From positions 1-51,883 of the IMG/VR virus record IMGVR_UViG_3300002026_000042: DNA of 51,883 nt. One strand, written 5' to 3'. Below are positions 3,847 to 47,144 of the stretch, in pieces (position 1 is the stretch's first letter; every line of letters begins with the position of its first letter). A program made the position numbers and the translations under genes. A model generated the notes under the pieces. That model saw only the letters and a list, made by a program, of their open reading frames with translations. It searched no databases and had not been told where the DNA came from. This DNA is from a virus.

Positions 3847-4335
3847 CTATATCTCCTGCTCAGGCCACGCAGCAGGTTGAAGAGCTGGTGGCATTGTGCG
3901 ACTGACATTAGACTTGATGTCCTGACCATACATCCGATGGTCAAACTTGCGCAAGCTGAATATCTGACGCTTGGCCGTCTCCATGTACGTCTGCATCTGC
4001 TCCGTCATGTTCTGCGACAACTGCTGGAACTCGCTCATCAGCAACAGCCCCGCCGTCCAGTAAAGCGCAGCGTGCCGCAGGTCGCCGGGAAACACACGCA
4101 CGGTTTGACCATTAGGCATGACTTTGTTCATCGCCCTGATCGGGGTATGATACACCTCCCCCAGTATCCCGTCAATGTACCTATCCACCCGTTCCTGATA
4201 CCGATTAACCATCATCTGGTCTATCTTTGCCATCTTGCCAGCATCAATGTTCAGAACAGACAGCACGTCGCGTAGCTCTCCCCAGTCCCCTGAATAGTAG
4301 CTCTCGCCTGTTGTCGGTGATAGGTCAGCCATCAT
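3847..4335 (-). CDS. head-tail connector-like protein (Mu gp36/DUF1320-like pattern)
   Basis: 162 aa. The pattern ...RVDRYIDGILGEVYHTPI...GDLRHAALYWTAGLLLMSEF... resembles head-tail connector families. Motif-level call only. Confidence 0.35.
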   Translation of the reverse strand: MMADLSPTTGESYYSGDWGELRDVLSVLNIDAGKMAKIDQMMVNRYQERVDRYIDGILGEVYHTPIRAMNKVMPNGQTVRVFPGDLRHAALYWTAGLLLMSEFQQLSQNMTEQMQTYMETAKRQIFSLRKFDHRMYGQDIKSNVSRTMPPALQPAAWPEQEI

Positions 4336-4586
4336 CCCCTCCTAATGTTGATCCCGATCACCTTGTCGGCGATACGCGACACCGTAGCCTCTGGAATCGC
4401 CGCACGTATCCTGCGCCCCATGACTTCAGCATCTTCCCCCACGGCAACCGCCTCGTAGCGACCATCAGACACAGACGCCTTGCCAGCACTACGCAGTGCC
4501 TTGTTGACCGCGATCATTGTCGCCGCCCGATGCAGCAACGATCCGATCCTCGCAACCTCAACGTCTATGCCCTTGTCGCTTTTCAT
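4332..4586 (-). CDS. hypothetical protein (84 aa)
   Basis: Minus-strand ORF whose stop overlaps the downstream start by 4 nt. Confidence 0.5.
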   Translation of the reverse strand: MKSDKGIDVEVARIGSLLHRAATMIAVNKALRSAGKASVSDGRYEAVAVGEDAEVMGRRIRAAIPEATVSRIADKVIGINIRRG

Positions 4587-4596
4587 AGCTTACCGC

Positions 4597-5028
4597 CTAG
4601 TACACGCCCATGTCCATGTCGTATGTTTCCCAGACATCACGTCCCGCGCCGATGCGTCCAGTCGCATTCGCCCTCACCATTACGCTTATCTCCGTTGGCC
4701 GCTGCTTGTCGTTCACGAACCGAACGACATACTTCCATTCCTTATGATCATTGGGAGAGTTTTTGCCGCCGTTCTCTTTAAGAATCCGCTGCCACTCTTC
4801 GCTTGCCCAATACCTCGACGCCCCGACCTGCTCCCAGTCCCAGCCCATAGAATCGAATGCCTTGACCATGTTGCTGACAGGAACCCACGCCTCGTCATGG
4901 AACAGCCCATTCGTCACCCGACCAACTAGATCGGAAACGACCTTGCGAGCCTTGGCATTGCTAAGTCCGTCCAATGTGCTTTCCAAAGCACCAGCCACTT
5001 TCATAATCTCACTCACAATTTTGTTCAT
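4597..5028 (-). CDS. hypothetical protein (143 aa) with shared N-terminal leader
   Basis: ATG at 5028 preceded by GGGGGTG, placed after the stop (5042) of the upstream ORF. Starts MNKIVSEIMKVAGALEST. Confidence 0.6.
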   Translation of the reverse strand: MNKIVSEIMKVAGALESTLDGLSNAKARKVVSDLVGRVTNGLFHDEAWVPVSNMVKAFDSMGWDWEQVGASRYWASEEWQRILKENGGKNSPNDHKEWKYVVRFVNDKQRPTEISVMVRANATGRIGAGRDVWETYDMDMGVY

Positions 5029-5041
5029 AAAAACACCCCCA

Positions 5042-5662
5042 TCAATGACCATACCCGCTTGCTGTCTGCTCCGCTGGATTCCCGTCCCACTTGCTTGCCC
5101 ACTCATTGCTTGAAATCTTGACAGACCCACTCGGGCTGACCCGCTTTACAACCGCCTGCTCATGCCGATTGAAAGAGTCGGGAATAGGAACCACGCGAAC
5201 CACCCCATACGCAGTATCGCTAACGACCTTCTTGTTTAGGCTGCGAACCTTAACGCTCTTGTCTGTCACTGCCAGCACCTGATAAAAGCTCGCGTTTGTC
5301 TGATCATATCCCCAGCTAGACTCTAGAATGTCCCCTACAACCAGACTATGCTTGTAGTCAACACGGGTCTGCTTGCTTTCGTTCTTAACCTGCGCCTTCT
5401 TCTTGGCATTATCCACAGCGATCTCCACGAGCCGATCAAAGCGGGAACGGTCATTAAACCGATAGTACCAATCGGGCTTTGACTTCTTGCCCGAGAACAG
5501 CATCCCTACTGGCTTCCCGTTTGACCCGTTCGCCTTGTACAAGGCGACAATCCCGTACTCTGGGTATTCCACCCGCTCCGCGTCGTCCCCCATCTTCTGC
5601 TCGTACGCCGAACGCCCTGGGACGATCAACGCTGCCACCTTCAGAATCTCCCTGGCTATCAT
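5042..5662 (-). CDS. hypothetical protein (206 aa) with leader-like N-terminus
   Basis: ATG at 5662 preceded by CAGGAGGG. Starts MIAREILKVAALIVPG. Confidence 0.6.
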   Translation of the reverse strand: MIAREILKVAALIVPGRSAYEQKMGDDAERVEYPEYGIVALYKANGSNGKPVGMLFSGKKSKPDWYYRFNDRSRFDRLVEIAVDNAKKKAQVKNESKQTRVDYKHSLVVGDILESSWGYDQTNASFYQVLAVTDKSVKVRSLNKKVVSDTAYGVVRVVPIPDSFNRHEQAVVKRVSPSGSVKISSNEWASKWDGNPAEQTASGYGH

Positions 5663-5718
5663 AATCTTAACCCTCCTGACCCCCTATCACCATCAGGCAA
5701 CAAGTTTATACAAGAATA

Positions 5719-6528
5719 CTAAATAAAACGTGTCGGCTTCCAGCCCCTCAACCTGCCACTAAGGAACGGGATGCCGTGCCGACCTCGCGCCCCGCCAACA
5801 CCCCTGATGGCATCATAATAAGCAACCGTAGGATAAGCAAGGTAGTTGCCCGTCTTGAACTTCTCGTTCTGCATCGCCTCCCTCGCCCTGCTTTCAGCAT
5901 TTTCCTTCAGCGTCGTAATCTGATTGACGATATCCCCTCCAGACCCCTCGTACACCTCCTGCGGCCCCGTGGCAAACACAAGACGATAACGCCACAGGTC
6001 ATAGTCAAGCAGCAGCTTCTCCATGCACATCGCAAAAGCCGCATCAAGCACCACACCCTCCCAGTTGCGCGGGAAGTTGTCTATCGTGTAATCCGTGGGT
6101 GGCCCGACCGCAGTCATGTTGACAATAGACAACGCAGCCGTCAGGAACCCCTCCTGTATCGGCGTAGGGAAGTAATCGAACCAGTAGGTCGCCTCCACCA
6201 CATCCCTCGGCCTCCCGTCCAGCCCGACGTCAACAGTACCGACGGAGAACGTACCCTCGGAATAGCTTATCACTGTCACGTCAGACGCGTGCGGCCCGCT
6301 CGTCAGTACAGCCCCGTTCTTGCGCACAACCAGCGGGGCATCCTCCAGCCAGTTCATGTAGGTACAGTTCCACGTCGCCCTGTCTGGCCGCAGCTCGGCA
6401 AGCTCATCGTGGATGCGAATCTGCCTGAACGACATCAGCTTCGGGGTCATCATGGTGTCAATCAAGTGATTGAACCGATCCGTTGACGCCACTGCCGTTT
6501 TGATGTATGTGCCTGGGAAAACGCTCAT
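5719..6528 (-). CDS. hypothetical protein (269 aa)
   Basis: Long minus-strand ORF. Its start overlaps the upstream stop (6525..6528). No recognisable motif. Confidence 0.6.
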   Translation of the reverse strand: MSVFPGTYIKTAVASTDRFNHLIDTMMTPKLMSFRQIRIHDELAELRPDRATWNCTYMNWLEDAPLVVRKNGAVLTSGPHASDVTVISYSEGTFSVGTVDVGLDGRPRDVVEATYWFDYFPTPIQEGFLTAALSIVNMTAVGPPTDYTIDNFPRNWEGVVLDAAFAMCMEKLLLDYDLWRYRLVFATGPQEVYEGSGGDIVNQITTLKENAESRAREAMQNEKFKTGNYLAYPTVAYYDAIRGVGGARGRHGIPFLSGRLRGWKPTRFI

Positions 6529-9576: not shown

Positions 9577-9944
9577 TGGCGGAGGTGGCGGGAGTTGAAC
9601 CCGCGTCCGTGAAAGCCAGTCTTGAAAGCGTCTACGTGCATAGTCACTGTTTCTCGACATGTAACCCGTCTATTCAGTTCTTAGCTGACAAGCAGGGAGT
9701 TCTTTCAACACCCAAAGCCAGCGTTCTTAGCCGCCATCAATCTCTGTAATCGACACTACTGACACCTACCGAGACAATCTCGGTGCCTTCGTGCTGGTTG
9801 CTTACGCAGCCAGAGCAAAAGCTCTGGCACCAGGGAATGCAATTGAGTTATCAATTGACTTGTAACCGGCTATTAACGAGGCCAACCGGTCAACCTCGGC
9901 ACGCAACTCCCAACCCTCGACCCACGTCGAAACCAGTCACCCCC
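9577..9944 (-). ncRNA. ssrA: tmRNA (SsrA), full length
   Basis: 5' GGGGGTGACTGGTTTCGACGTGGG... and 3' ...GGACGCGGGTTCAACTCCCGCCACCTCCGCCA. Acceptor stem has a G3-U wobble, the T-arm is GCGGG-TTCAACT-CCCGC, and the terminus is CCA. The internal tag reading frame ends GCA TTC CCT GGT GCC AGA GCT TTT GCT CTG GCT GCG TAA (...AFPGARAFALAA-stop). A possible resume codon GCC follows UUAAUA. Confidence 0.9.
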
Positions 9945-15421: not shown

Positions 15422-15948
15422 CTCTTCCCTTTCACCCCGAAAACAAAGCCACACTTGCCGCATGTACACTTGACCCGCTGTTCATCCTTCACAATGTCAG
15501 CAAGAAGATCGGAAATGTCCCCCACATCCCCGAGGCCGTCACGGATCATACTGCCGAAGTCCACCTTCAGCAACGCCTTGAACTCCTCGTCCATAACATC
15601 AAGACGCGCCGTGATTACATCCCAGTTCCATTCCGACCCCAACGCCACATCAGACGCACGGTTGTCCATCAGCCCGTACGCCATCGCCTCCTCATCCCCT
15701 ATGTCCAGACGAATCGCGGCAATCCGCTTCCACCCCAGCTTCCCCGCCGCCTCCAACAGCCCATGCCCAGCCCTGCAAATACCGTCACGATCAAGCACGA
15801 CTGGCTTTGTCTGACCGAACCGAGTCAAACTGCCGACCAGCATATCAACATTCGTATCAGAATGGATCTTGGAGTTTAACGGGTCTAGCGTTATCCCGTC
15901 GATAGGAACAATGAATCCATGCAAGCTCTCAACAATAACCTCTTTCAT
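15418..15948 (-). CDS. ParB/Srx-fold (ParB-like nuclease domain) protein with C-terminal zinc ribbon, copy 2
   Basis: ATG at 15948 after GGAGG. IVPIDGITLDPLNSKIHS...FGQTKPVVLDRDGICRAGHGLLEAAGKLGWKRIAAI is a ParB N-terminal domain pattern. C-terminal CTCGKCGF. Confidence 0.65.
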   Translation of the reverse strand: MKEVIVESLHGFIVPIDGITLDPLNSKIHSDTNVDMLVGSLTRFGQTKPVVLDRDGICRAGHGLLEAAGKLGWKRIAAIRLDIGDEEAMAYGLMDNRASDVALGSEWNWDVITARLDVMDEEFKALLKVDFGSMIRDGLGDVGDISDLLADIVKDEQRVKCTCGKCGFVFGVKGKR

Positions 15949-17959: not shown

Positions 17960-18238
17960 TCAATGATTGTTTCCACCGTTCACCGCCACGGGAGTCGCCT
18001 TGTGAACCACACGCCCATTGAACTTGACCCTGAATCCCCATTTTAGGTTTCCCGTGTCTTTCCCATCCACCTCAAGTTCCCTCAGTACCCTGCCAACTGG
18101 AACGATCCACTCTGGCGTCATATCATCAAAACACTTCTCAAGCCCGCTGTAATTAGACCCACGATTATTCATACTCCCCCATAACCTGCATTCGCCCGAA
18201 ATCAAGCACTCTTGCGACAAACAAAAATCGGCTCCCAC
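17960..18238 (-). CDS. hypothetical small protein (70-92 aa, start uncertain)
   Basis: The ORF overlaps the methyltransferase stop if started at 18238. An internal ATG at 18172 would avoid the overlap. Confidence 0.45.
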   Translation of the reverse strand: MGADFCLSQECLISGECRLWGSMNNRGSNYSGLEKCFDDMTPEWIVPVGRVLRELEVDGKDTGNLKWGFRVKFNGRVVHKATPVAVNGGNNH

Positions 18239-20151
18239 TTCTCGCCCCTCCCAAACAAAGAACTAGCCACAAGCCGATGCTCCTTGTAAATACCGTGCCC
18301 CGCCGTAAGATACATCCTAACGTCATCAGCGATATTGTGATCTACCACGTTGGCAATGTTAAGTGCAAAACACCCCCCAACAGACAAGTGCCGCATCGCC
18401 TTCTCTATCAGCGGAAACAGAAACAACTCCTTCCACGCCCCGTAATCCTTATAGCGAAACGCGCTTTGTCTGTCATCGCCCCCATACCACTCCGCATCGA
18501 AATAAGGGGGAGACGTGAATATGAAATCAAACAGCCCACCAACCTCGTAGTCCTCGAATGCCGTGTTGACTATTTTAACCTCTTTCCCATTCCCAACCTT
18601 TGCCGCAAGCCTGTTAAGCCCTGCAACTGTCTCTTTTTCAACCTCCACCCCAACATACTCACTTGCCGCAGAGCAACAAAACCCAAACAATCGTCCGCCC
18701 CACCCCGCACAGGGATCTAAAACGCGTCCCCCAGAAACACAATACCGATCAATTAAAGCCTTCGCAACAACTGGCCTGAAATTGTGAACTCCACCAAATG
18801 TTGCAAGCTCCGCCCGAACCGCAGAATCCGTCACCGACTTCCTATGCTTAATGCAGTCTGTTATCGCATGACGCAACAGCGAATCATCATCGAACACCGC
18901 TATCGGACTCAACTTGCCCTTGCGTTTCGCCGACCAGAACCCTTTGAAAAACGAAAGACACTCTGCACACCCCGCCGTATTGCCAGCAGGAATGTCCGTG
19001 TCAAACTCAAGCCTAGAACCAACAACAGACTGCACCGCCTTTGACACCCCTTCCGCCGTGCTATACGGAAATGAAAACCCAGCACGACGCAAGTGCGCAA
19101 ACACCGTATCGACCCACATGTCCACGTCGCAATCTACAGACAATACATCCCGAGACGCATCAAGCATTACACGCTGATGATTGCACGGGGTACCCCCGAG
19201 ACTAGGCGAAACCTTATACATCATACTTGGGTGCATATGGGGTTTTATCATTTCAAAGAACAGACCCTTGTTTTCAATCACAATGATAGATATGTCGTCC
19301 CGTTCGGCAACTTTAACGTCTAATCCTCGACCATCCATAAACCGCTTGATCCTATCAATATCCTCCCGACAGAATCCTGACGAAATCGTAGGCACCCCAT
19401 CCTTGCACCTGTCAGACAAATGCCCGTCATCCATGTACCAGACAGCAAGAGCCATAGGAGTTAGCATAATCTCAAAACCCACTGGCAACCGCTTCCCGCC
19501 GTCCCCGTAAAACATCTCCTTGAATGGTTGGAACACCCCATGAGAACAAGTATGAAACACATGCCCATAAGCAATCCGACCATCCTCCAGCAGCTTGTCC
19601 TCTCGCCTAATGCGCCCCGAGTACGGGAAAAACACCGCCTGCTTCCATTTCAAATAATCTAGCTGCTCTAAACAGTGCGACTCCTTATACCTTGACGTAC
19701 CCACGCCGCTTATCGCTAAATGTCCATCTCCCAATAATGACCCAAACAAAACGGCCTTCTGTTCTTCAGTCAATGACGATGGGTATGTTGCCTGATTTCG
19801 ATCCGACTTGCCAACCACAGGAATCCCGAACTCACCCCTAATCGTCTTGATCAACATCCTGCTACAACCAAACATCTTAGCCAGTTTGCTTTCTCCCGTT
19901 TGCCAATACATCTCTTCAAACTCACCACGGGTCAGACTGCGAATGTCACGCAGCCCAGAACGACAGGCCCGCCTCGATATCCGATCCCTTGCCGATATGG
20001 TTCCAATACCATATTTTCGACGATAATACGATACCGCGACATCACTTATTCCGTGTATGTCCCCAATCTCCCGATCAGACAATAATTGTTCAACATACAA
20101 CGACTCAATAACATCCTTTGTCAGATCATGCTCTTTATGCGTTTTCTTCAT
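18202..20151 (-). CDS. fusion ORF: two HTH repeats + double-motif LAGLIDADG homing endonuclease + SAM-dependent (SPPY) DNA methyltransferase
   Basis: ATG at 20151 lies 7 nt after AAGGAG. The upstream 63 tracked codons are intergenic and contain a promoter and terminator. HTH-like LSDREIGDIHGISDVAVSYYRRKYGI and ESKLAKMFGCSRMLIKTIRGEFGI. LAGLIDADG motifs LFGSLLGDGHL and LAVWYMDDGHL. Methyltransferase motif I RVLDPCAGWGGRLFG and motif IV FDFIFTSPPYF. Confidence 0.75.
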   Translation of the reverse strand: MKKTHKEHDLTKDVIESLYVEQLLSDREIGDIHGISDVAVSYYRRKYGIGTISARDRISRRACRSGLRDIRSLTRGEFEEMYWQTGESKLAKMFGCSRMLIKTIRGEFGIPVVGKSDRNQATYPSSLTEEQKAVLFGSLLGDGHLAISGVGTSRYKESHCLEQLDYLKWKQAVFFPYSGRIRREDKLLEDGRIAYGHVFHTCSHGVFQPFKEMFYGDGGKRLPVGFEIMLTPMALAVWYMDDGHLSDRCKDGVPTISSGFCREDIDRIKRFMDGRGLDVKVAERDDISIIVIENKGLFFEMIKPHMHPSMMYKVSPSLGGTPCNHQRVMLDASRDVLSVDCDVDMWVDTVFAHLRRAGFSFPYSTAEGVSKAVQSVVGSRLEFDTDIPAGNTAGCAECLSFFKGFWSAKRKGKLSPIAVFDDDSLLRHAITDCIKHRKSVTDSAVRAELATFGGVHNFRPVVAKALIDRYCVSGGRVLDPCAGWGGRLFGFCCSAASEYVGVEVEKETVAGLNRLAAKVGNGKEVKIVNTAFEDYEVGGLFDFIFTSPPYFDAEWYGGDDRQSAFRYKDYGAWKELFLFPLIEKAMRHLSVGGCFALNIANVVDHNIADDVRMYLTAGHGIYKEHRLVASSLFGRGEKWEPIFVCRKSA

Positions 20152-20181
20152 AAAATACTCCTTGTTAAACGTATAACTTGC

Positions 20182-20210
20182 ATTTAACCGAAAAACAATC
20201 GGCTTGTCAA
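20182..20210 (-). promoter_or_regulatory. sigma70-type promoter
   Basis: Minus strand TTGACA (20210..20205), a 17-nt spacer, then TTAAAT (20187..20182). Sits about 30 nt upstream of the ATG at 20151 and directly after the capsid terminator. Confidence 0.55.
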
Positions 20211-20291: not shown

Positions 20292-20334
20292 CAAACAAAA
20301 ACAAAAAACCCTTGGGAGGTTTATTTCCCAAGGG
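20292..20334 (-). terminator. strong rho-independent terminator after the major capsid gene
   Basis: Minus strand CCCTTGGGA-aataaacc-TCCCAAGGG (9-bp perfect stem) followed by TTTTTTGTTTTTGTTTG. Confidence 0.85.
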
Positions 20335-20365
20335 TCTCAAACGCCTACATTACAGGCATTTACGC

Positions 20366-21229
20366 TTACGGACGCGTTATCTCTATTACTTGAAGTGCGA
20401 AGGGATTATAAGCGCCGATGCCGATTTGCTCGAAGATCGAGAAACCGATCAGACGGTTTTTCGGATCATCAGCAGACAGCACGGTCAGCTCCGTACGCAC
20501 AGGAATGCGACCGAAGAACTCGGGCTCGCCGCAAACGTACACGGTGCCTTCGGGCACGATACGCGACACGATCAGCTTGGCACCCCAGATGGTTGCCATC
20601 AGACCAGTCTTCAGCAGCACTGCCTGGGTCTCGATGTCGAGGGTATCCCGATCCCACTTGCGCAGGTCGGCATAGTCCTTGGCATTCAGGAACACAGAGG
20701 CGACACGCACGTCGGTACGCTCGATGTTGGCAAAAGCATCTGCCAGAGCGTTAGCCGTGAGGTTGCCCATGACGGGAATCACCGGGTTCGGGTTGGTCGG
20801 GTCAGCGGCCAGAGCGTCCATGACGGCGAAGGTCTTGCGATCCTCTTCCGCCTGAATCTCGGCTTTGCCCAGATCCACAGCACGTTCGATCAGATCGAAC
20901 CGACGCTGCTTGATCTCGGTGAGCTGGATCTCGGGGTTCGAGGCGATCTCGAACAGCGGGAACAGCACACGTTTCGGCTTGGCAACCGCGACGATGTTCT
21001 CCCCCTCTTCACCAACGACATACGCCGTGATGTTCGGGTCCTTATCGTAGATCGGCAGGGCTCCATCGGGCAACGCCTCGACAAAGAACGCCTTACGGCC
21101 TACGCTGGAATAGTCACGCCGACGGCGCAACGGCTGAATCATGCTTGCAGCCAAACGCTGACGCCCTGCGGCGGTGCGGATGTGCTGGGAAATGATCTGC
21201 TGACGGGTCTCATTAGTCATCTTGCTCAT
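20366..21229 (-). CDS. major capsid protein, HK97 fold (encapsulin-like, no delta domain)
   Basis: 287 aa. Pattern ...FPLFEIASNPEIQLTEIKQRRFDLIERAVDLGKAEIQAEEDRKTFAVMDAL...FLNAKDYADLRKWDRD...TGLMATIWGAKLIVSRIVPEGTVYVCGEPEFFGRIPVR... is typical of HK97-type coat and encapsulin shell proteins. Sits after scaffold-like genes and before the strongest terminator. Confidence 0.8.
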   Translation of the reverse strand: MSKMTNETRQQIISQHIRTAAGRQRLAASMIQPLRRRRDYSSVGRKAFFVEALPDGALPIYDKDPNITAYVVGEEGENIVAVAKPKRVLFPLFEIASNPEIQLTEIKQRRFDLIERAVDLGKAEIQAEEDRKTFAVMDALAADPTNPNPVIPVMGNLTANALADAFANIERTDVRVASVFLNAKDYADLRKWDRDTLDIETQAVLLKTGLMATIWGAKLIVSRIVPEGTVYVCGEPEFFGRIPVRTELTVLSADDPKNRLIGFSIFEQIGIGAYNPFALQVIEITRP

Positions 21230-30266: not shown

Positions 30267-30305
30267 TTCACCCTCCATACCCTTACCATAAATATCAAAA
30301 AAAAG

Positions 30306-33413: not shown

Positions 33414-33415
33414 AA

Positions 33416-37900: not shown

Positions 37901-38711
37901 TGACAGGCTCCTTGCTGACCGACTTCGTCTCCTTGATCTGAGGGTTATCATAACGGGAAAGATTACGGCCCACGTTCTTCGTGAAGGTCTCAAGATCCGC
38001 CTTGTTGTAATCAGGCAACCCAGCACTCGCCGCACGCCCCGCCTCAATCGCCTTGTCAACCATTGCCTTCTGCTCTGGCGTCAAGTCCTTGACCTTTGCA
38101 GCCGTTCCATCAGGAAACCTGACAACCACATTCTTTGTCAACTGCGTCGGATGCAGCTTGTGCGCCTCCCACCCCTCACCAGCGGGGAATGCGGGGTGAT
38201 CCGTCACCGATACCTCTCGGTCAATCTTGTACGGCTTTTTCTTCTGATCTTCCTGCTGCTTAGGCTTCTGCTTATCCTTCTGATCGTCCTGCTGCTTAGC
38301 CTTCTCATCCTGTTCCTTGACGTGATGCAACGATCTATCAGCATCAGGATGTGCTTCCAGATAGGTGTCTATCTGATTCTTCGTGTCAAAGTCGATTGCG
38401 AAGCGACGGGAAGCGGTTGTCACCTGTGGGAGCAAGGATATAACGCCCTCCCCCTCATCTAGCTTCTTCCAGTCGATCTCCTCTTTATCCCCAGACGGAG
38501 CATCCCCTTTCGCCTCCTCGTCCCCAGCCTCTGGTTGTTCATTCCCGTCAGACTCGGGCGCAGCGGGTGTTTCAGACGATTCTCCCTCAGATGAATTAGG
38601 CTCTGGATCAGCCGTATCCTCGGACTCCCCGCCCGACTGCAACACCTCAAGCATCTTCTGCTTGATTTCATCTTTCAGCTTTTCGTCAACCGCCGCACGC
38701 CTTGTCATCAT
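34929..38711 (-). CDS. 1260-aa polyvalent-type protein: acidic N-terminus, HD phosphohydrolase domain, P-loop kinase (zeta-toxin/AAA_33-like) domain, C-terminal small domain
   Basis: HD: GDHGVRHVAG...MANHDIGYTMG (about 37500..37640). Walker A LFIGPAGSGKSW (about 36027..36056) followed by a D-x-TG Walker B-like segment. C-terminal HAEYRSDLRGL... resembles DUF4258-type small nuclease/toxin domains (weak). The ATG overlaps the portal stop (ATGA). Confidence 0.65.
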   Translation of the reverse strand: MMTRRAAVDEKLKDEIKQKMLEVLQSGGESEDTADPEPNSSEGESSETPAAPESDGNEQPEAGDEEAKGDAPSGDKEEIDWKKLDEGEGVISLLPQVTTASRRFAIDFDTKNQIDTYLEAHPDADRSLHHVKEQDEKAKQQDDQKDKQKPKQQEDQKKKPYKIDREVSVTDHPAFPAGEGWEAHKLHPTQLTKNVVVRFPDGTAAKVKDLTPEQKAMVDKAIEAGRAASAGLPDYNKADLETFTKNVGRNLSRYDNPQIKETKSVSKEPVSKENAKAFAGELKKNATSVIDKFAASLSDDARPRADKFVEHFASAVEEAANDGSLGDVSQEDLDEFLREDVKRMLHQEVEQRRRPIGDHGVRHVAGNCESAMQMMGQLSKTGSPINGIDKVMVMSVMANHDIGYTMGAIATDATKGSGHKDASVVAIGEETDRYAKLFGKDGFEKYKNLVTTHDAAEMDWDKEPVASAVRLADNTALFGTDKVQELFIRKPETMETVCKLRLAAEMEPPKPKEPEQAKFAKPEEYEAAVAKFKQDKEKYESPEVQEKVKKSKQMQDANKNALHEHIDGDNDIADVDKDLLHRQVSDMIEGKFSVSADVLSRYSGRLNSFEFDKANKMMNVNMTYSPDGEIVDSLFGDEVAERQFDKFTKDMKGKPVKGKTGSTQFSNKDGKAVTQLNIDGVDKSPVDSAATEVMKSFLKKTGRHDLRAAAKDIELGAPGAVAKARHSLSSVKEKMTEQEFRELMDSFDQDAGNPSQLASKLKQWPLFQSEMEYLTGKAASMSRRGARGLQVNRKDRDLISDTGGTSKKHTHDVEQRSPREDVKKPWRTKTKTDEQRDKDIDGDPDMKLSSIDRDPIIAALREMGVAGLCKVAGPQDIRWQAVLFIGPAGSGKSWLRSKRYMKYLNSKVVDPDEIKQAHPEYDSENPGKLHDLSKQISDAQYKQIVTSGTGDPVIVDGTGRDPRSIISKAQVARAEGYRIFLIYAWVPVEVSLFRNRNRPRFVPEDLILEQSKSIVKSFGVLKGIVDKYTVIPNYSSADLSEAKADLEVYPAPQAKRPPRPSDATYGLARAAAMPTKHRMPTDRNLGTRVHRDKSKFHKTKRQKDKADLRMTHEGRAFEAGIMDVLQKAKNRFTPDTLGKILEKLQRFVKTKSPADDLSNAEVKSIYGPYDYGQTLPMSKKRDVEVDWSSHAEYRSDLRGLNSKAVNESVRDWLSERLKTKGPDSKQVRMDLNPGTAVVDYDLRQNPAAADLITVWASRRG

Positions 38712-41700
38712 TTTCTCAACCTCCCAACCGCTTCAGCCGCAACCTCCGCCGCCGTATCAATTTCATCATCGCTAGGGTTATCCCCCAACGTCTCTATTGC
38801 CGCCGCAGCAGCCGACTCAATCTGACTATCCCCACCGCTATCACCCGACATCGTTCCATCAGCCTCCTCGGAAAGCCCCCAGTCACCCCCGCCACCTTGG
38901 TATTCTCCCGAGCCACCATCTGCATACCCAGACTCGTCCCCTCCGCCTCCGCCCATTCCTCCATCCCCCTCGTCGGGCTTGGCGTATTTCAGACCTAGGT
39001 ACTTGGCAATGCGTTCAACAACGTCAGAGTTCTCAACGATATTCCGACCCACCTCACTACTGATTTCCTCAAGCAGCCTGTTGAAGTTGGCGTCCTTTAC
39101 GGTAAGCATATCCTTCTTCAGTCCCTCGCTTATCTCGTCTGCATTAAGGTTGAATAATTCATAAATTATATCAACAGGAATACTTCCCTTCTGATACAAC
39201 TGGAACAAGGACTCAAAGACCTCCTGATTGTCTCGGATCGTTATGCGATTGAAACCGACCGTCGGATGCAGGTACTTCTTTATCCCATTAGCCCCCATCT
39301 CGTACCACTTGTGCGCCTCGCAGATCGGAATGAAAAGCTGTTCCTCTATGTAATTCCGAAGCATCTCTCGGGTCAACACGAACGTGGTGTTCATAATCTC
39401 AACGGTTATCCTGTTGCCCGTGAAGTTCCCCTCACCCGTCATCAGCTCCCGCGTTATCCCCAAGGCGGCAAACACCTGATTCTCGATCCGCTCGTACTCC
39501 TGACTCAAATCCAACAACCGATCCTGCGCCCCGATCTGATTCCATTCGATCTGGTAGTTCGTGACAACGCTGTAGTCTGGATCCAGCATCGACATATCTA
39601 TCTGAGTGCGAAGCTCATCGACCTCGCTCGGCATCAGCCCCGGCGCTGAAATCACGTTTCGGGGCGTCATGTTCCTGCTTGCCAGACTCAACTGCGCATA
39701 CCGATACTGCTCCTTCTGCAACATCGGAACCAGCACCCGCTCCAGCACCGACGCGCCCAGATCAAGATACGGGCTCTTACGCCTCGCGAAATGATGAACG
39801 AAAGAACCCGTCATAGGATCACTGTCCATAACGATACAATCATTCTCGACCACCATATCCACAAGCTCTTGCGGTATGTTGTCGAGGATCTCCGAGTTCA
39901 TATCCGACCTGTCGCAAGACCCGTCAGGCAACTCGCTGCCCGTGTCATCGGATGCCCCAGCCTGCTGTTTGATCAGTTGGATCAACCGCGTCGGCCTGTA
40001 CTCCACCCGCTTCTTGTCGGAGAATGGGTATTGGAATACCCCCACCTCCTCGGGCGGCAACATGATAGCCTTACTCCACATCTTCTTTTCCTCATCCCAC
40101 TCATGGAACAGGAAGCAATTATGAGTACGGATACCAGCAGCGCAGTACGTGTGAGAGCCTTTTACCTCGAAGTTGTACACATGTCCTGAATAAAAAGGTC
40201 TATCAACTTCGTCAACCCTATAGTAAAACTTGCCATCAACCTGTTTGAACGTCGGATTAACTTCTACGACTTCGCTCCACGTTGCCTCTTTTTCTTTAAG
40301 GCACCCATGAATCAACGATTCAACAAAACCACGAGTTCCGATATTGACGTTAAAACATATTTTATTACCAACAACACGTTGGTCTCCGATAGATGTATCC
40401 ACCATCCTCTTACTTGCACTGAATGTCATTGGGAATCCACATTTTATTGAAATGTGAAAAAGTTGAATCATTAGCTCCTTGTTCGTCCCCGCTATTCCCA
40501 CGGTTAGTCCAGACTCTTTTTCAGATACACATCCGTCACTGTCGATAAGCCCACGAAGCAACCACACTAATTTTTCTTTCGGCAACTCCATTACCCAACC
40601 AGGGATTTTCTTACTACCACACTCGGATCCGAAGTTTATATTCCACCACGAAGCAAATACAGGGTCTCTAACAACGACATGATCCATGTGATCGTAAATC
40701 ACCTTTTCACTAGACACCGCCTCGTCTCCAAACAACGAAACAGCAATGTCGTTTATTCGGTTGAAAAACTCTGGGACCAACGGAGAAACACAAATGTCCA
40801 ACCCGATAAACTCCCGTGAAAACTTGTTCTTATTCTTCCACAGCCAACCATCTCCAAGCCAATACCCAAGATAATACAAAAAGTCTTCATCAATGCGGAT
40901 AGACCTCGGAACAAGCGATTCCATGCGAATGGTACGATCCACGACAGACTCTTCGTCTCTTTTGTCTGTCGGAAACCACCGCATAGAACTTCCACCGCCA
41001 TAACCAAGGCTAGTTCTTTCCGTTTTTATAACCCCCTTCTGTCTAAGATAATATGCCGCACTTCTAACTCTTACACCGTCTGAGACCCCGAGCATCAAAG
41101 CGACCTCAGAGCACTCCTTAACAACTGGTTCTTTAAGAGTCGAAAGCCACGAAACAATTGACTCTCGAACCTCCTTGGATGACACGTTTATTCCCGACGG
41201 AGTCTCGTATTCACAAACAACCCCAGAATCATCAACCGAAACAGACGAATAGAACGATCTTAAAGAAGGAAGAACCTCGTCAAACCAATCAATCTTGTCT
41301 ATGTCTACATTCTTTTCTATTCCCCCGATCCCGATCCAGTCCCCCCTATGAACTTCCTCGGCTTTCACCATCTTCTCTTGACCGTCTCTCAACACAAAGA
41401 CAGGATGCTCACTCGTTGGCGAGAACTCCAAACCAGAAAGTCGCGACACCCCTAGACTGACAAGCCGTTCCGACACCTTGCGCCGTGCAATCCCTGAAAC
41501 TTCCGAAAAGTTCCCATCAGCGTCAAGCACCATGTCTCCTTCTCTTATATCACTGATAGGAACAACACCTTCACGAGTAAGAATAGGAGTGTCTCCCTTA
41601 AAGCAGTTCCCGATCATGGAGGCCTCCATCAGGATAGACTGGGCAAGGTCAAACATGTGAAGCACCTTCATCTGGTTCTCGAAAAACTCCTTGATCTCCG

Positions 41701-42835
41701 CCTGCTTCTCCTTGTCCTGCATCTTCGGCATGTGCAAAGTGAACTTGGACATCGGCAAGTCAGATAGCAAGTCAAGCCCGCGACCGACATACGCATCGGT
41801 GTTGTGAGTCACCATGCCGTTGCAGATATAGGACTTCTCATCTCCTTCCGCATCAACCTCTATGTTGTGAACGATGTCATCTTCTTGCGAGAACGTCACC
41901 TCTTTGACCTGGAATGCCGCATAGCCATTTATCAAAAAGGCACCAGGAGCAGACTCTTTCGTTTCAACTGGATCCCACAAGACAGAATCTGAAACAAGCC
42001 CATTCGCACTCCACGATGGAATCGAGATATGAATCTGCTTGTTGCCACTGTCATATCCAGACCCCGAAGTCCGATCATACACCGCATACCGACACATCAC
42101 CCTTGCTTGTTCGTTCGTAATCTCCCCCGCCCTAGACGACGGCAATGGAGGAAGAAGAACATAGTCCCCCGGCTTGACATCCTCGGCATGAACCCATTCA
42201 GGATTGAATTGGATGTTATTCTTGAACCGCCCTCCATTCGCATAACGCAACTTCTCACCGCGAAGTATCCAGTAAGGATGATGGTGGGTTGTTTTAAGAT
42301 GATTCTGTAGGCACCACGCTTTGATCGTCGTAGCCTTGTCGTCTGCAAATCGACGCTCAAACTTATCTTTAACTAGCCTCACGGTTCCCAGTCCCGTAAC
42401 GACACTATCCCCGATCTGTACATCTCGGATGTCTTTTACCGTGCCATCAGCCATCGTCACTAGACCTAGGTCGTTGTCGCTTAGGTAGATACAACGGGCG
42501 AAATATCTGTACCACTGGTATTTCTCTGCCAGCGTGACGGGCCAATACAACCGCCCGCCGTTCTGCTGGTTCATCATTGTGAAATACATCGGAACGTCAT
42601 ACGTCCCCGTACGATCCCCAAGCCCGTAGGCGTAGCTCGACCTGTACGCCTCCATCCTGTACCCAGACTGGTATGGGGCGGCCTGCTGCGCATCGTCCAG
42701 CAGCATACCTGCGGTTCTATCAAACCCGAACCCGCCAGCCCCCTCTGCCTTCTTGGCAATACGAGCCTTCAGCGGATCAGCCTTGCCGACCGCCACCTTA
42801 GGCACCTTCATTCCCGCCGTAACTTTCCCAGCCAT
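38708..42835 (-). CDS. portal protein interrupted by two inteins (extein about 648 aa)
   Basis: The extein sequence reads through as ...KYQWYRYFAR/TDAYVGRGLDLLSDLPMSKF...MEASMIGN/CFLFHEWDEEKKMW.... Sits downstream of the terminase as expected for a portal. Gly/Asp/Ser-rich acidic C-terminal tail. Confidence 0.8.
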   Translation of the reverse strand: MAGKVTAGMKVPKVAVGKADPLKARIAKKAEGAGGFGFDRTAGMLLDDAQQAAPYQSGYRMEAYRSSYAYGLGDRTGTYDVPMYFTMMNQQNGGRLYWPVTLAEKYQWYRYFARCIYLSDNDLGLVTMADGTVKDIRDVQIGDSVVTGLGTVRLVKDKFERRFADDKATTIKAWCLQNHLKTTHHHPYWILRGEKLRYANGGRFKNNIQFNPEWVHAEDVKPGDYVLLPPLPSSRAGEITNEQARVMCRYAVYDRTSGSGYDSGNKQIHISIPSWSANGLVSDSVLWDPVETKESAPGAFLINGYAAFQVKEVTFSQEDDIVHNIEVDAEGDEKSYICNGMVTHNTDAYVGRGLDLLSDLPMSKFTLHMPKMQDKEKQAEIKEFFENQMKVLHMFDLAQSILMEASMIGNCFKGDTPILTREGVVPISDIREGDMVLDADGNFSEVSGIARRKVSERLVSLGVSRLSGLEFSPTSEHPVFVLRDGQEKMVKAEEVHRGDWIGIGGIEKNVDIDKIDWFDEVLPSLRSFYSSVSVDDSGVVCEYETPSGINVSSKEVRESIVSWLSTLKEPVVKECSEVALMLGVSDGVRVRSAAYYLRQKGVIKTERTSLGYGGGSSMRWFPTDKRDEESVVDRTIRMESLVPRSIRIDEDFLYYLGYWLGDGWLWKNKNKFSREFIGLDICVSPLVPEFFNRINDIAVSLFGDEAVSSEKVIYDHMDHVVVRDPVFASWWNINFGSECGSKKIPGWVMELPKEKLVWLLRGLIDSDGCVSEKESGLTVGIAGTNKELMIQLFHISIKCGFPMTFSASKRMVDTSIGDQRVVGNKICFNVNIGTRGFVESLIHGCLKEKEATWSEVVEVNPTFKQVDGKFYYRVDEVDRPFYSGHVYNFEVKGSHTYCAAGIRTHNCFLFHEWDEEKKMWSKAIMLPPEEVGVFQYPFSDKKRVEYRPTRLIQLIKQQAGASDDTGSELPDGSCDRSDMNSEILDNIPQELVDMVVENDCIVMDSDPMTGSFVHHFARRKSPYLDLGASVLERVLVPMLQKEQYRYAQLSLASRNMTPRNVISAPGLMPSEVDELRTQIDMSMLDPDYSVVTNYQIEWNQIGAQDRLLDLSQEYERIENQVFAALGITRELMTGEGNFTGNRITVEIMNTTFVLTREMLRNYIEEQLFIPICEAHKWYEMGANGIKKYLHPTVGFNRITIRDNQEVFESLFQLYQKGSIPVDIIYELFNLNADEISEGLKKDMLTVKDANFNRLLEEISSEVGRNIVENSDVVERIAKYLGLKYAKPDEGDGGMGGGGGDESGYADGGSGEYQGGGGDWGLSEEADGTMSGDSGGDSQIESAAAAAIETLGDNPSDDEIDTAAEVAAEAVGRLRK
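40118..41605 (-). mobile_element. portal intein 2 (496 aa) with LAGLIDADG homing endonuclease
   Basis: aa 411..906. Starts CFKGDTPILTREGVVPISDIREGDMV, has block B SPTSEHPVFV, LAGLIDADG motifs YLGYWLGDGW and LLRGLIDSDGC, and ends HVYNFEVKGSHTYCAAGIRTHN followed by Cys. The DNA is visibly more AT-rich than the flanks. Confidence 0.85.
41801..42493 (-). mobile_element. portal intein 1 (231 aa, no clear endonuclease motifs)
   Basis: aa 115..345. Starts CIYLSDNDLGLVTMADGTVKDIRDVQIGD (block A), has KTTHHHPYW (block B TxxH), and ends IVHNIEVDAEGDEKSYICNGMVTHN followed by Thr. Confidence 0.8.
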
Positions 42836-44006: not shown

Positions 44007-47000
44007 TCAAAATCTAATTAAAGGAACACCCACGCTGCCCTTACGCTGGTAAGCCCCACGCGGGTGATCCCCATGCCTTTTCATTCTATCCACCATGAAC
44101 CCAAGCGACGTCTGCATCCCAAGGCTGCTCCTCCCGCCCGTAGCACTGCCACTAACGACGTTCATCCCACCATCCTTGGAATCGTTATAGCACGCCCAGA
44201 CCGCACGCGCAAGTGCGTCGCTTATGTCATCGTGAGCCCCAGCCCGATGCGGGGCACGAACAAGAACCCGATGCTTGTTCTTCATCTCCGCCTCCAGCGA
44301 CAATATCTCTGGAATCAGCACGGGGTCATCATAGAGAACCAGAAGCTCCTCGGCGTACATCCGCTTTAGCAACTGGTAGATGGAACTGTTCAGCAAATCG
44401 TTGAACTCCTTCATCTCCAGCATCCCCAGACCACAGGTTTTAAGCATTTCAGCAAGTGCATACCCGTTGTGCTGGTCAAACAACCCCTTCTTGAACGGGA
44501 ACCATTTGTGCGTTTCCTTGATCTCCCCGATCATATCCGCCATAGACAACAAGTCCTTGTCCGAGTACTTGCCGCACCCCGCATAGATCGACCTGTCCGA
44601 ATCCCAGACATCAGACGCCCCAGAGTACCAGACCTTCGAGTAGTCCAAGTACACCTTTCTGGTTTGCATATCCTTATGGACAACACACAAGGCTGTACCG
44701 TCGTTCTTGAAACCCAAGTCAATCCCAGCATAGTATTCGATGCCAGTCTGCCCACGGCGGGGTGCTGACGGTAGGGTGATACACTTCTTCATCTCGTTCT
44801 CATCCTCGACCCACGCCTTTACGGAGTCGGAGAACTCCGCCCCGTATTCGCACATGAAAGATGACCTGTCACGACGCTTGGCAGCAACCAGAATCTCCTT
44901 CGGCAAATCGGGATTCATCATTGCAGAGTACATCTTGAAGCTGAGGGTCACATCGGTTTCGTCAAACGACTGTATGAACCGCTCGTAGAATATCCCGAAC
45001 TTTGCATAGGGTGAAGAGATGCATATCACCTTCCCGTCATTCTGGAACGATGCGACAGACGGCGTTAGCGCACGATAGACTTCCTTACCGCTGAACCTGC
45101 CCGTGTTGTCTATGAAGAAGGCCATCTCGTCCATGATTACGACAATCGCGTTCTTACCACGGAGGGTGTTGGAGGAGCAGCCGCCAGACAGCATGATCAG
45201 TGACGGAATCGCCTTAGGCCCCAGAGCGATATCCGCATCCGTCTGGAAGTCAAAGTACGTTTGCGTCGAATGCACACCACGCCCCTGAAGGTATGGGCAC
45301 TGGATGGCAAGCGTCTTTGCCATGCCGAACACCGTGTCTGATTGATCATCCGCTGGGGCGACGTTTAGGATGTAGCACTTGGTGAAAGCTGGGAATCCAT
45401 AAGAAGCAGACGGGTCGCCCTTCTTGATCAGCTTGTACATCTCGTAATTCGACATACACGCAGAAAGGGTGGAGTTGTGAGAAACGACATCACCACCGAT
45501 AATGTGAGTGCCCGAAACCTCCACGTCAACCGTCAGTCTCTTTCCCACGCAATTCAACGACGACACCTCATCCCACATAACATCCGATGTTCCCATATTC
45601 ATCAAGAAATCGTCACATATTTTTTCCCCATACAACTGTACCTTTCTCCTGCTTGGAGCATAATTCCACCTTAACCTTCCCCTAGCCCCAACACCATGTT
45701 CCCCCACGACATCTGCCCCAGACAATCCTCTTTCCGACATAACTTTCTTTACGTATCTCCATATCCCTTTGGGAACAGAACCAAATTCACTTTTAGACAC
45801 CTCCCGTCTCCTGGCCGACTCAACAACCAAGTCAACCTCTTTCTCTTTTGAAAGAATACCAATATCATTCCGAAATTTTTCAAGACTGTCCGCCCGTGCA
45901 ATGCAAAGACTCCACGATTCAAATGACTTACCCCCACATGTGTTTTTCTTTTTATTCACAATGGAATGTATTCCATACTTAAGAAGCAAATGCCGCACCC
46001 CGTCTATCATCTTTCGCGACGCTGAACAATACCCGATATGCGCACTAGGACTGCCGCCATGTCCCGCCGCAACTTTCCCTTTCACGGTTGCCCACCCATC
46101 ACATCCAAAAAGACGAGACAAAAAAGCAGAAACCTCGACCCGTGATCCTCTCAAAATACAATCAGGGACTTCCTTTATTACAGCCTTTTTGCCAAAACAC
46201 CCCACACTCCGAAGCCACTCCTTGACTTCATTTTTCCGGCTCCCATATTGTTTGAATCGCCCAGATTCTTTTTGCACCTCATATCCAAGACGAAATGACT
46301 TAAGACCCTTCTTCCTCACAACGTATCCGGGAAACTCAAGAGCAATAAGTTTCTTCAAATCGCCCAACATCACTTCGCTTCCAGTAGTATATCCAACAGA
46401 ACATGTAGTCCCTCCATCGCCTTGGAAATGTCCCAGCAACGCCGCTCTTGCCACTCCGACTCCAGCCAGTCCAAATAACTCCGTACAAGCCGCAATCGCA
46501 ACCTTGTCTCCTACCATCAGGTTTTTCATTTCGACGAAATCAGGCTTATCCATGTCATCCCGCCATACCAGATAAGGATGATTCCAAGATGAGGTTTCCC
46601 TTATCCCCCGCTTCGTTACCAACTCACAACATTCAACTCGCCCATTATACTGCGCTTTTATTTGATCAGAAATAGATCGACGCAAGGTAACAGGATCGTA
46701 AGTACCTATTCCTATTTTTTCTCCATTTCCCAACCGATCACAAAGCTCACCGAATGTTATCGACCCAGCCGTCGTTGCAATCAGATCATCCTTATCCCGG
46801 CACTTGCCCGACCGACGACCGATAGACCATACCAACTCACGGAACAGCATGCCATCCGTCTCGTCCACGTTGCAACGCCCTTCGGCATACAACCACTTCA
46901 GGAAATCCGCCTCGTTGAACTCATACAAGATCCGCTCATTGGTTTCGTCTGGAACCTTGATCGTCTTGGAACCACGATCAAGTGGCAGACCGTACGCGCA

Positions 47001-47144
47001 CTTGACGCAGAACTTCTGGACAGGCTTGAGCTTGACCCGTAGCCCCCACGGAGCCTCGATGAATGTTATCGGGTCAACGTCTGCCGCCCCGCTTGACAGG
47101 AAGTCGCGGGCAATATCAGCAAACAACGAGTTTGAATCAGCCAT
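44007..47144 (-). CDS. terL: terminase large subunit interrupted by an intein in the Walker A P-loop
   Basis: Walker A split as SIGRRSGK/intein/STLSAC. Walker B NAIVVIMDEMAFF. RNase-H-like nuclease motifs YYAGIDLGFKNDGTALCVV and GAHDDISDALARAVW. Confidence 0.9.
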   Translation of the reverse strand: MADSNSLFADIARDFLSSGAADVDPITFIEAPWGLRVKLKPVQKFCVKCAYGLPLDRGSKTIKVPDETNERILYEFNEADFLKWLYAEGRCNVDETDGMLFRELVWSIGRRSGKCRDKDDLIATTAGSITFGELCDRLGNGEKIGIGTYDPVTLRRSISDQIKAQYNGRVECCELVTKRGIRETSSWNHPYLVWRDDMDKPDFVEMKNLMVGDKVAIAACTELFGLAGVGVARAALLGHFQGDGGTTCSVGYTTGSEVMLGDLKKLIALEFPGYVVRKKGLKSFRLGYEVQKESGRFKQYGSRKNEVKEWLRSVGCFGKKAVIKEVPDCILRGSRVEVSAFLSRLFGCDGWATVKGKVAAGHGGSPSAHIGYCSASRKMIDGVRHLLLKYGIHSIVNKKKNTCGGKSFESWSLCIARADSLEKFRNDIGILSKEKEVDLVVESARRREVSKSEFGSVPKGIWRYVKKVMSERGLSGADVVGEHGVGARGRLRWNYAPSRRKVQLYGEKICDDFLMNMGTSDVMWDEVSSLNCVGKRLTVDVEVSGTHIIGGDVVSHNSTLSACMSNYEMYKLIKKGDPSASYGFPAFTKCYILNVAPADDQSDTVFGMAKTLAIQCPYLQGRGVHSTQTYFDFQTDADIALGPKAIPSLIMLSGGCSSNTLRGKNAIVVIMDEMAFFIDNTGRFSGKEVYRALTPSVASFQNDGKVICISSPYAKFGIFYERFIQSFDETDVTLSFKMYSAMMNPDLPKEILVAAKRRDRSSFMCEYGAEFSDSVKAWVEDENEMKKCITLPSAPRRGQTGIEYYAGIDLGFKNDGTALCVVHKDMQTRKVYLDYSKVWYSGASDVWDSDRSIYAGCGKYSDKDLLSMADMIGEIKETHKWFPFKKGLFDQHNGYALAEMLKTCGLGMLEMKEFNDLLNSSIYQLLKRMYAEELLVLYDDPVLIPEILSLEAEMKNKHRVLVRAPHRAGAHDDISDALARAVWACYNDSKDGGMNVVSGSATGGRSSLGMQTSLGFMVDRMKRHGDHPRGAYQRKGSVGVPLIRF
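45474..46802 (-). mobile_element. terminase intein (443 aa) with LAGLIDADG homing endonuclease
   Basis: aa 115..557. Starts CRDKDDLIATTAGSITFGEL, has LAGLIDADG motifs LLGHFQGDGG and LSRLFGCDGW, and ends LTVDVEVSGTHIIGGDVVSHN followed by Ser. Confidence 0.85.

Follow-up and report, generated by a model that had tools for sequence, protein, structure and literature searches.

The window analyzed here is the whole of the IMG/VR virus record IMGVR_UViG_3300002026_000042 (positions 1 to 51,883), a stretch of 51,883 nucleotides (nt), and the gene under study is a single open reading frame (ORF) on its minus strand, in which helix-turn-helix (HTH) units, a LAGLIDADG nuclease and a methyltransferase module are joined in one protein of 649 amino acids (aa). 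Its only stop codon is the terminal one, as an earlier reading of the letters without database searches (the sequence-only reading) had stated, and the four motifs quoted in that reading are all present in the translation (Table 1). The start is the ATG at 20151..20149, a methionine shared by homologues and by an independent gene call, and a longer TTG-initiated ORF of the mechanical list was set aside. The neighboring 287-aa gene (20366..21229) encodes the major head protein (phrog_2522, E=5e-56), whose relatives are found in a 485-kb uncultured phage (68% identity), Tunturiibacter phage Tunturi_5 (49%) and Bacillus phage G (38%). The 168-aa gene before the capsid gene matches the capsid decoration gene of phage G in position, and because of these capsid relatives and this position the window is assigned to a phage-G-like jumbo phage. 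The sequence evidence indicates that the fusion is a real, selected and, by prediction, bifunctional accessory gene of this phage.

Table 1. Features of the fusion gene, its protein and its immediate surroundings in the window (pLDDT, predicted local distance difference test score of the structural model).
Feature	Position	Strand	Extent	Basis or remark
Whole HTH-LAGLIDADG-methyltransferase protein	18202..20151	minus	649 aa	
Two helix-turn-helix units	19777..20151	minus	aa 1-125	PHROG matches, model, HTH domains of homologues
LAGLIDADG domain, monomeric, two-motif, I-SceI type	19186..19776	minus	aa 126-322	Pfam, I-SceI by sequence and fold
Motif LFGSLLGDGHL		minus	aa 135-145	sequence
Motif LAVWYMDDGHL		minus	aa 235-245	sequence
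Flexible linker	19132..19185	minus	aa 323-340	pLDDT <50 for aa 324-336
Helical N-terminal part of the methyltransferase module	18787..19131	minus	aa 341-455	model; also in stand-alone relatives
Rossmann-fold catalytic domain	18205..18786	minus	aa 456-649	profile and fold matches, motifs
Motif I, DPCAGWGGR	18717..18691	minus	aa 479-487	sequence
Acidic motif II residue	Rossmann domain	minus	E503	D or E in 29/29 homologues
Motif IV, SPPY (TSPPYF, aa 546-551)	within 18516..18499	minus	aa 547-550	sequence
Ribosome-binding site AAGGAG	20158..20163	minus		6 nt upstream of ATG, read from the sequence
Promoter-like site, TTGACA (20210..20205), 17-nt spacer, TTAAAT (20187..20182)	20182..20210	minus		sequence reading
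Intrinsic terminator of the major capsid gene	20305..20338	minus	13-bp stem and T-run	terminator scan
Small downstream ORF	17960..18238	minus	92 aa as listed	overlaps the 3' end of the fusion gene

The N-terminal half is most likely an active site-specific homing endonuclease. The Pfam family LAGLIDADG_2 (PF03161) matches aa 133-294 (E=2.7e-20; 73 bits, with a cut-off of 25), phrog_11023, a family of phage LAGLIDADG homing endonucleases, matches at E=3e-23 and the homing-endonuclease models (HEase) of PADLOC match at E=6e-20. The closest solved protein by sequence is I-SceI (E=3e-9), and the same enzyme is recovered by fold, since Foldseek aligned this half to the I-SceI structure 1r7m over 199 columns (E=3.5e-12) with a target template-modeling (TM) score of 0.77 and a root-mean-square deviation of 2.2 Å. 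The monomeric nuclease with two motifs that had been recognized from the letters is therefore borne out both by family and by fold. In the alignment with I-SceI, D142 and D242 are equivalent to D44 and D145, and K220 and K313 to K122 and K223; we take the former pair to be the metal-binding acids and the latter the active-site lysines. D142, D242 and K313 are invariant in an alignment of 29 homologues, K220 is K or R in 29/29, and the invariant columns also include G141, D241 and G243. A census of residues was made in 158 two-module proteins from a library clustered at 50%, so that at least 158 fusions exist, and it gave the same picture for D142 and D242 (each 157/158), K313 (156/158) and K220 as K or R (152/158). 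In WhiA, a domesticated LAGLIDADG protein, the metal-binding acids and the lysines have been lost and DNA is not cut (PMC3384342). Because the residues lost by such domesticated proteins are retained here, the nuclease half is read as active, and the acids whose loss would mark a dead domain are conserved. An intein or intron context was considered and rejected, for the Pfam search of the protein found no Hint splicing domain and the Rfam search of the window found no intron near the gene, its sole match being a transfer-messenger RNA (tmRNA).

The C-terminal half is probably a DNA amino-methyltransferase acting on cytosine N4. The methyltransferase that had been read from motif I and motif IV turned out to be real yet divergent: the mad2 methylase model of the MADS system in PADLOC matches at E=1e-12, Type II methylase models also match, and a profile of the module searched against PDB matched the N4/N6 DNA methylases 2zie (E=1.4e-5) and 8s9n (E=1.3e-4), the latter a cytosine-N4 enzyme. 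These closest solved methylases are of the permuted beta class, whereas in the fusion motif I comes before motif IV. Among the 29 homologues D479, G483, R487 and S547-P548-P549-Y550 are invariant and G485 is kept in 28/29, and the census of 158 gave 156 for D479, 152 for S547, 155 for P548, 156 for P549 and 152 for Y550. The Rossmann fold, modeled at pLDDT >90, matches class I methylases including M.TaqI and M.BseCI, while fold matches in BFVD, over ~360 columns, are viral proteins annotated as cytosine-N4 DNA methylases. Methylases without the N-terminal half, for which a search had been proposed, do exist: stand-alone relatives, which align with aa 348-647 or with the core, are encoded by Vibrio, Staphylococcus and Bacteroides phages and are annotated as DNA or N4-cytosine methylases. 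They also possess the helical N-terminal part (aa 341-455), which for this reason may be the target-recognition part. Only ~100 aa follow SPPY in the fusion, and no canonical C-terminal target-recognition domain is present. The tetrapeptide S-P-P-Y is a signature of N4-cytosine DNA methylases, while RNA enzymes forming N2-methylguanosine (m2G) typically have D/N-PP-F/Y. Because the fold is also that of RNA methylases, specificity for DNA and for cytosine N4 is judged from SPPY and from the relatives.

HTH units and a linker complete the protein. The AlphaFold (AF2) model, built from 29 homologues, has a mean pLDDT of 89 and resolves HTH bundles (aa 12-122), the LAGLIDADG domain (pLDDT ~90 across aa 126-322), a disordered linker (aa 324-336), a helical segment (aa 343-450) and the Rossmann domain (aa 460-649). 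Its predicted TM score (pTM) of 0.53 leaves the relative placement of the modules undefined, as for independent modules. The segment aa 1-125 is formed by auxiliary DNA-binding modules typical of phage homing endonucleases; it matches the DNA-binding parts of PHROG families annotated as HNH endonuclease and repressor, and homologues of the fusion carry HTH_23, HTH_28 and HTH_29 domains. The claim that the HTH units are two repeats stands in part: each unit is a three-helix bundle in the model and some homologues align to the region at two offsets, but no similarity between the two units was detectable by BLASTP.

The fusion is not peculiar to this window. A word-indexed search returned 83 proteins, ~20 of them full-length at 39-55% identity and ~12 of them longer proteins of ~32% identity with extra Cys-rich arrays at the C-terminus. 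In P0021-P0028 (816-926 aa, e.g. L009:8001-10754) there is a C-terminal extension of ~250 aa with many CxxC repeats and faint zf-CGNR matches, which is presumably an additional DNA-binding array. An exhaustive profile search gave 29,661 matches at E<=1e-3 and 3,762 at E<=1e-30, and among the best 150 the majority align with the profile over most or all of its length without a break and so contain both modules. The frequency of fused and split forms was not taken from this search, because a full-length profile ranks two-module proteins first and the estimate is biased. In most of the relatives detected the two halves form one protein; they are not separate genes that a sequencing frameshift has joined here, and the same ORF is found in an independent contig of 99% identity. 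Pairwise identities among the fusions fall to ~25-30%, and therefore the fusion is old and maintained rather than a recent landing. Compared with the 99%-identical variant in L006, the gene shows 14 synonymous and 8 non-synonymous codon changes, a ratio of non-synonymous to synonymous rates (dN/dS) of ~0.2, and it is under purifying selection.

The fusion is essentially absent from cellular genomes and is a phage-specific accessory gene. Among 185,579 species genomes, a pattern-limited scan gave 14 loci, of which 13 hold the methylase only and one, a 3-kb contig of a metagenome-assembled genome, the two-module form. The contigs examined for context and 80 IMG/VR loci are all phage. BFVD holds no full-length structural match (query TM <=0.40), and the source annotations of the homologues, 'hypothetical protein' and in one case 'TrmN6', are uninformative. 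In a neighbor-joining tree of the LAGLIDADG domain, which is crude, most fusions form one clade, and methylase-linked members with different linker architectures (P0033/P0034, P0035, P0036) are also found beside free-standing genes in two or three other clades. This hints at a recurrent or repeatedly remodeled association between LAGLIDADG domains and methylases.

The position of the fusion is fixed, in a slot after the capsid gene, and its presence among close relatives is patchy. In all of the larger contigs examined (94 to 259 kb) it comes directly after the capsid gene with a gap of ~110-240 nt, and it has the same place in a 40.5-kb contig whose fusion is 28% identical; in LR745208 it lies ~1 kb downstream of the capsid gene. 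In L091 and L092, the loci with the most distant fusions, the upstream genes have no detectable capsid similarity and no PHROG match, so that the linkage is established only within the phage-G-like capsid clade. Two cultured relatives, Tunturi_5 and phage G, lack the gene. A survey of the slot covered the 80 IMG/VR loci, where the capsid protein has 63-94% identity to that of the window; its counts are approximate and refer to distinct loci. Upstream of the slot these loci are syntenic, DNA homology stops at the capsid stop codon, and the slot itself is hypervariable. It holds the fusion in ~16 loci, LAGLIDADG genes only in ~11 (two in tandem, from different clades, in 3 of them), methylases of this family that carry ROS/MucR zinc fingers and HTH units in ~5, proteins with ROS/MucR, DUF7487 and HTH domains that match a homing-endonuclease PHROG in ~3, and unrelated genes such as those for a RecQ helicase or an anaerobic ribonucleotide reductase in ~27. 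Carriers of the fusion are interleaved with non-carriers in the capsid-gene tree. The post-capsid slot is a homing-endonuclease hotspot.

Several arrangements in the slot were observed besides. The proteins with ROS/MucR and DUF7487 domains (phrog_3339, 'homing endonuclease'; L020:2281-4506, L047:1943-3424, L055:6826-8898) represent a second, putative homing-endonuclease type, and those of L020 and L055 end in an HTH that is ~50% identical to that of the fusion, while none was detected in L047. A second methylase gene with a ROS/MucR zinc finger and HTH stands right after the fusion in L001:11995-14595, L008:10016-12124 and L064:4570-6711, and L068:3594-6881 encodes a single protein of 1095 aa with a LAGLIDADG and two methylase domains. 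For the slot methylases without LAGLIDADG, the N-terminal ~300 aa gave no nuclease match, and a convergent fusion of these methylases with another nuclease is unsupported. The major capsid gene itself is interrupted in L055 (3556-6732), where the ~29 N-terminal codons stop near 3780 and the coding sequence is taken up again near 5998. The interruption holds two HTH-LAGLIDADG ORFs (3858..4886 and 5006..5935) that have both LAGLIDADG motifs and belong to the same Pfam and PHROG type, and the stretch 4939-5934 matches a group I intron of Rfam at E=2.4e-6, which is below the gathering score. It is likely to represent one or two mobile introns.

We tentatively read the gene as a selfish, accessory homing-endonuclease cassette with a fused DNA methylase as payload, and give this reading a chance somewhat short of even. 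The nuclease half would keep the cassette in the hotspot just downstream of the conserved capsid gene and spread it through this site: during a mixed infection it would cut relatives without the cassette near the capsid locus, and repair templated on the carrier genome would copy the cassette in. The methylase half would be the payload that modifies, and so protects, the phage genome, with host restriction enzymes as the most probable threat and the cassette's own nuclease as a further possible one. Through their fusion by a flexible linker, nuclease and methylase would always be made together at 1:1 and moved as one unit. Host restriction would be the ordinary answer to what the methylation counters, and methylase paralogues, stand-alone or linked to zinc fingers, are stacked in the slot as in an arms race. 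From the sequences we infer the cleavage and methylation activities as well as homing. The sequence-only reading had listed, among its options, a homing endonuclease gene that landed in front of a phage methylase; the hotspot and the stand-alone methylases agree with this, but identities down to ~25-30% show that the landing was not recent.

A number of observations weigh against this interpretation. No pair of filled and empty sites with matching flanks was found among the relatives; their DNA past the end of the capsid gene is not related, so that insertion boundaries cannot be defined and homing is deduced from distribution only. The 263-aa downstream gene coincides in length with the post-capsid genes of Tunturi_5 and L007, without homology. 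Fusion identity follows capsid identity, with a Spearman coefficient of 0.54 overall and of 0.62 and 0.69 within two capsid groups, and much of the pattern could have arisen by vertical descent over a long time, in which the fusion was often lost or replaced; it would be explained just as well by homing in which the adjoining capsid gene was co-converted. The fusion evolves far faster than the capsid, for example with 50% identity where the capsid has 94%. When the capsid-gene DNA of carriers was compared with that of non-carriers, no column discriminated the two and no block of 20 nt exceeded ~90% conservation, and an attempt to predict a homing site or immunity substitutions from it was uninformative. 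Furthermore, the Pfam matches of the methyltransferase stay below the gathering score (PF01555, N6_N4_Mtase, 18 bits instead of 26.7) and NCBIfam gives nothing above cut-off for the protein; as these cut-offs are missed, the methyltransferase is a divergent relative and not a member of a curated family. Its fold matches also include Trm11, RNA m2G and ribosomal RNA (rRNA) methylases, and the fold alone cannot separate DNA from RNA enzymes. Finally, if the halves are functionally independent, there is no obvious reason why the fused state has been kept over such divergence.

This last point would be met by a different explanation, in which the protein is a single-chain enzyme resembling a restriction-modification (R-M) system and combining it with homing. 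The methylase would mark a short sequence within the long LAGLIDADG site and thereby render the carrier immune, the nuclease would cut the unmethylated DNA of relatives that co-infect or superinfect, or else rare sites of the host, and the fusion would ensure that no nuclease is made without methylase, as in Type IIG/IIC enzymes. Two options of the sequence-only reading, a selfish nuclease protected by its own methylase and a novel single-chain R-M-like or anti-defense enzyme, go in this direction; the sequences are compatible with both but show neither. In its favor, both catalytic centers are retained together in ~96-99% of the 158 diverged fusions, the fused state persists at the lowest identities, and methylase-linked members occur in several LAGLIDADG clades beside free-standing ones, which speaks for a recurrent or long-kept association. 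The capsid gene is extremely constrained (63-94% amino acid identity), so that it could hardly become immune through mutation, and carriers have no protective substitutions in it that non-carriers lack. For a target inside this gene, immunity would then have to be other than sequence-based; this comparison of capsid columns, made blind to the target site, is weak evidence. On the other side, free-standing LAGLIDADG genes of the same type occur in the slot with no methylase of the same family detected within 6 kb downstream, and the methylase module also occurs alone or with zinc-finger and HTH modules and no recognizable nuclease, like anti-restriction methylases. The model, with its low pTM and disordered linker, predicts no contact between the modules. 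We consider this explanation rather unlikely as a whole.

Still less probable, in our judgment, is a domesticated targeting module, in which the HTH units and the LAGLIDADG domain would bind (or nick) a long site and deliver or anchor the methyltransferase there. The short stretch after SPPY, without a canonical target-recognition domain, would suit a methylase that is guided by its partner, and members of the family are joined to varied DNA-binding modules (ROS/MucR, C-terminal Cys-rich arrays, extra HTH), in parallel with the sister methylases of the slot, which are linked to ROS/MucR zinc fingers and HTH units. However, the metal-binding acids and the lysines are kept in 96-99% of the 158 proteins, unlike in WhiA (PMC3384342), the stand-alone methylases, which share the helical domain at the N-terminus, evidently do not need LAGLIDADG to work, and patchy presence in a homing-endonuclease hotspot suits a selfish element better. 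It is very unlikely that the substrate of the methyltransferase is instead RNA, as for an m2G-type methylase, or protein, and that the fusion has a role unrelated to DNA modification: the best Pfam match of the Rossmann part is Cons_hypoth95 of the RsmD family (below the gathering score), the fold resembles Trm11 and rRNA methylases and one homologue is named TrmN6 in its source, but motif IV is the DNA signature SPPY and not the RNA m2G form, profile and fold matches include DNA N4/N6, Type II, mad2 and phage and viral N4-cytosine methylases, and the partners of the domain are modules that bind and cleave DNA. That the fusion stems from an error of assembly or a frameshift, or from a chance in-frame joining to a decaying nuclease in the very recent past, can practically be dismissed: nothing but the unusual architecture speaks for it, and against it stand the independent contig, the >150 diverged full-length homologues, the catalytic conservation and the dN/dS value.

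The surroundings of the gene are compatible with a separate expression. The terminator of the capsid gene that had been placed ahead of it was confirmed, and homologous loci show equivalent hairpins, followed by T-runs, in their intergenic DNA. Of the near-consensus promoter claimed next to it, the -35 element is perfect and the loci L008, L042 and L090 have TTGAC[AT]-N17-TAnnAT at the same position after the equivalent terminator, but the -10 element has only 4/6 matches, lacks the A at position 2 and fails the -10 rule of the scanner. Because these three loci share the arrangement of terminator and promoter, it is plausible that the fusion gene is an independent transcription unit. Its guanine-cytosine (GC) content is 0.492, while the capsid gene has 0.58 and the window as a whole 0.524; the gene is richer in AT than its neighbor, as had been claimed, but modestly so, as ~10% of stretches of its size have a GC content as low. 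For the small ORF downstream, a version of 70 aa starting at an ATG near 18171 after GGGGGAG is more likely than the one listed. It is homologous (46-73% identity) to the N-termini of methylase/zinc-finger proteins of 630-870 aa that occupy the same slot in L001, L034 and L036, and a second methylase gene, now deleted, may have left it behind as a remnant.

Elsewhere in the window, two proteins encoded on the minus strand at 38708..42835 (1375 aa) and 44007..47144 (1045 aa) contain LAGLIDADG_3-type insertions in stretches of low GC content (~0.45-0.49); Intein_splicing, Hint and Hom_end domains were found in the former only. The genome of this phage is heavily colonized by LAGLIDADG elements. 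The tmRNA gene mentioned above is full-length (9577-9944, minus strand; Rfam RF00023, 130 bits, E=9e-51). Other genes of the minus strand encode an RlaP nucleotidyltransferase (11862-12980), a weak radical-SAM protein (14078-15469), a ferritin-like protein of 593 aa (28497-30278), a CCA-adding/poly(A) polymerase with an HD domain (33416-34903) and a 1260-aa protein with a Zeta-toxin/AAA_33 kinase-like domain (34929-38711). A 427-aa ORF without Pfam match (32145-33428, minus strand) lies in the kilobase of lowest GC content (0.43) and may be an acquired gene.

The modules of the fusion are each familiar from other systems. With the I-SceI type of LAGLIDADG enzymes (PF03161) it shares two motifs in one chain, the fold and the equivalents of the four catalytic residues, and with free-standing phage LAGLIDADG genes, of which the same type is found inside the L055 capsid gene, it shares the place beside a conserved gene and the sporadic presence. 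It differs from the I-SceI type in being covalently joined to a methyltransferase of ~300 aa, outside any intron or intein, and its cleavage and homing are predictions. The phage orphan methyltransferases, a kind of enzyme that serves against host restriction, of Vibrio phage 2.058.O, Staphylococcus Twort-like phages and Bacteroides phage DAC are ~28-32% identical to it over aa 348-647 or the core, are likewise encoded by phages and have motif I and the SPPY motif IV, but the fusion methylase has a complete nuclease at its N-terminus and fails the Pfam thresholds. WhiA/DUF199 combines the LAGLIDADG fold with HTH in a multidomain protein whose partner function is not homing; it has lost the catalytic acids and lysines (PMC3384342), while the fusion family keeps nearly all of them.

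Among R-M enzymes, the Type IIG/IIC group (MmeI and BpuSI types) is most similar in layout, with an N-terminal nuclease and an amino-methyltransferase in one polypeptide, whose 1:1 coupling suits self-protection. The nucleases of this group are of the PD-(D/E)XK fold, share one target-recognition domain with the methylase, act at short sites and belong to bacterial defense loci; in contrast, the fusion has a LAGLIDADG nuclease, with a long site and a DNA-recognition surface of its own, and is encoded by phages and not by cells. Viruses encode R-M systems too, such as those of chloroviruses and EcoP1I of phage P1, in which a nuclease is accompanied by a methylase that protects the genome; unlike in the fusion, the two activities there lie on separate subunits or genes, the nuclease folds are conventional and the sites are short. 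Restriction enzymes are known on the PD-(D/E)XK, HNH, GIY-YIG, PLD and half-pipe folds. We know of no restriction enzyme on the LAGLIDADG fold and of no homing endonuclease that carries a modification enzyme. The sequence-only reading was aware of no LAGLIDADG protein serving as the nuclease of a nuclease-methylase polypeptide, and this remark has held up, since a search of the full-text literature found no natural LAGLIDADG-methyltransferase fusion, the nearest cases being inteins inside mycobacteriophage methylases and engineered chimeras. The fusion family is an apparently undescribed combination of known modules; it is present in hundreds of uncultured phages and is widespread among uncultured jumbo phages.

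What the family means depends on the role of the methylase. If it is only an anti-restriction payload, the cassette would still be a homing element with useful cargo, which is less surprising. A more far-reaching outcome, to which we assign a low probability, is that the fusion would be the first R-M-like enzyme built on LAGLIDADG, with an N4-cytosine mark on the site of the carrier standing for self and with unmethylated competitor genomes being destroyed or converted; if true, this would explain why both activities are fused and intact across deep divergence. As both centers are intact in a large phage family, whether the attached methylase provides the homing endonuclease with immunity or earns its keep becomes a testable question. 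The family would then link two classic selfish nuclease elements, homing endonucleases and R-M systems, it would illuminate the competition of phage against phage at the capsid locus of jumbo phages, and it might yield natural scaffolds that combine a meganuclease with a methylase.

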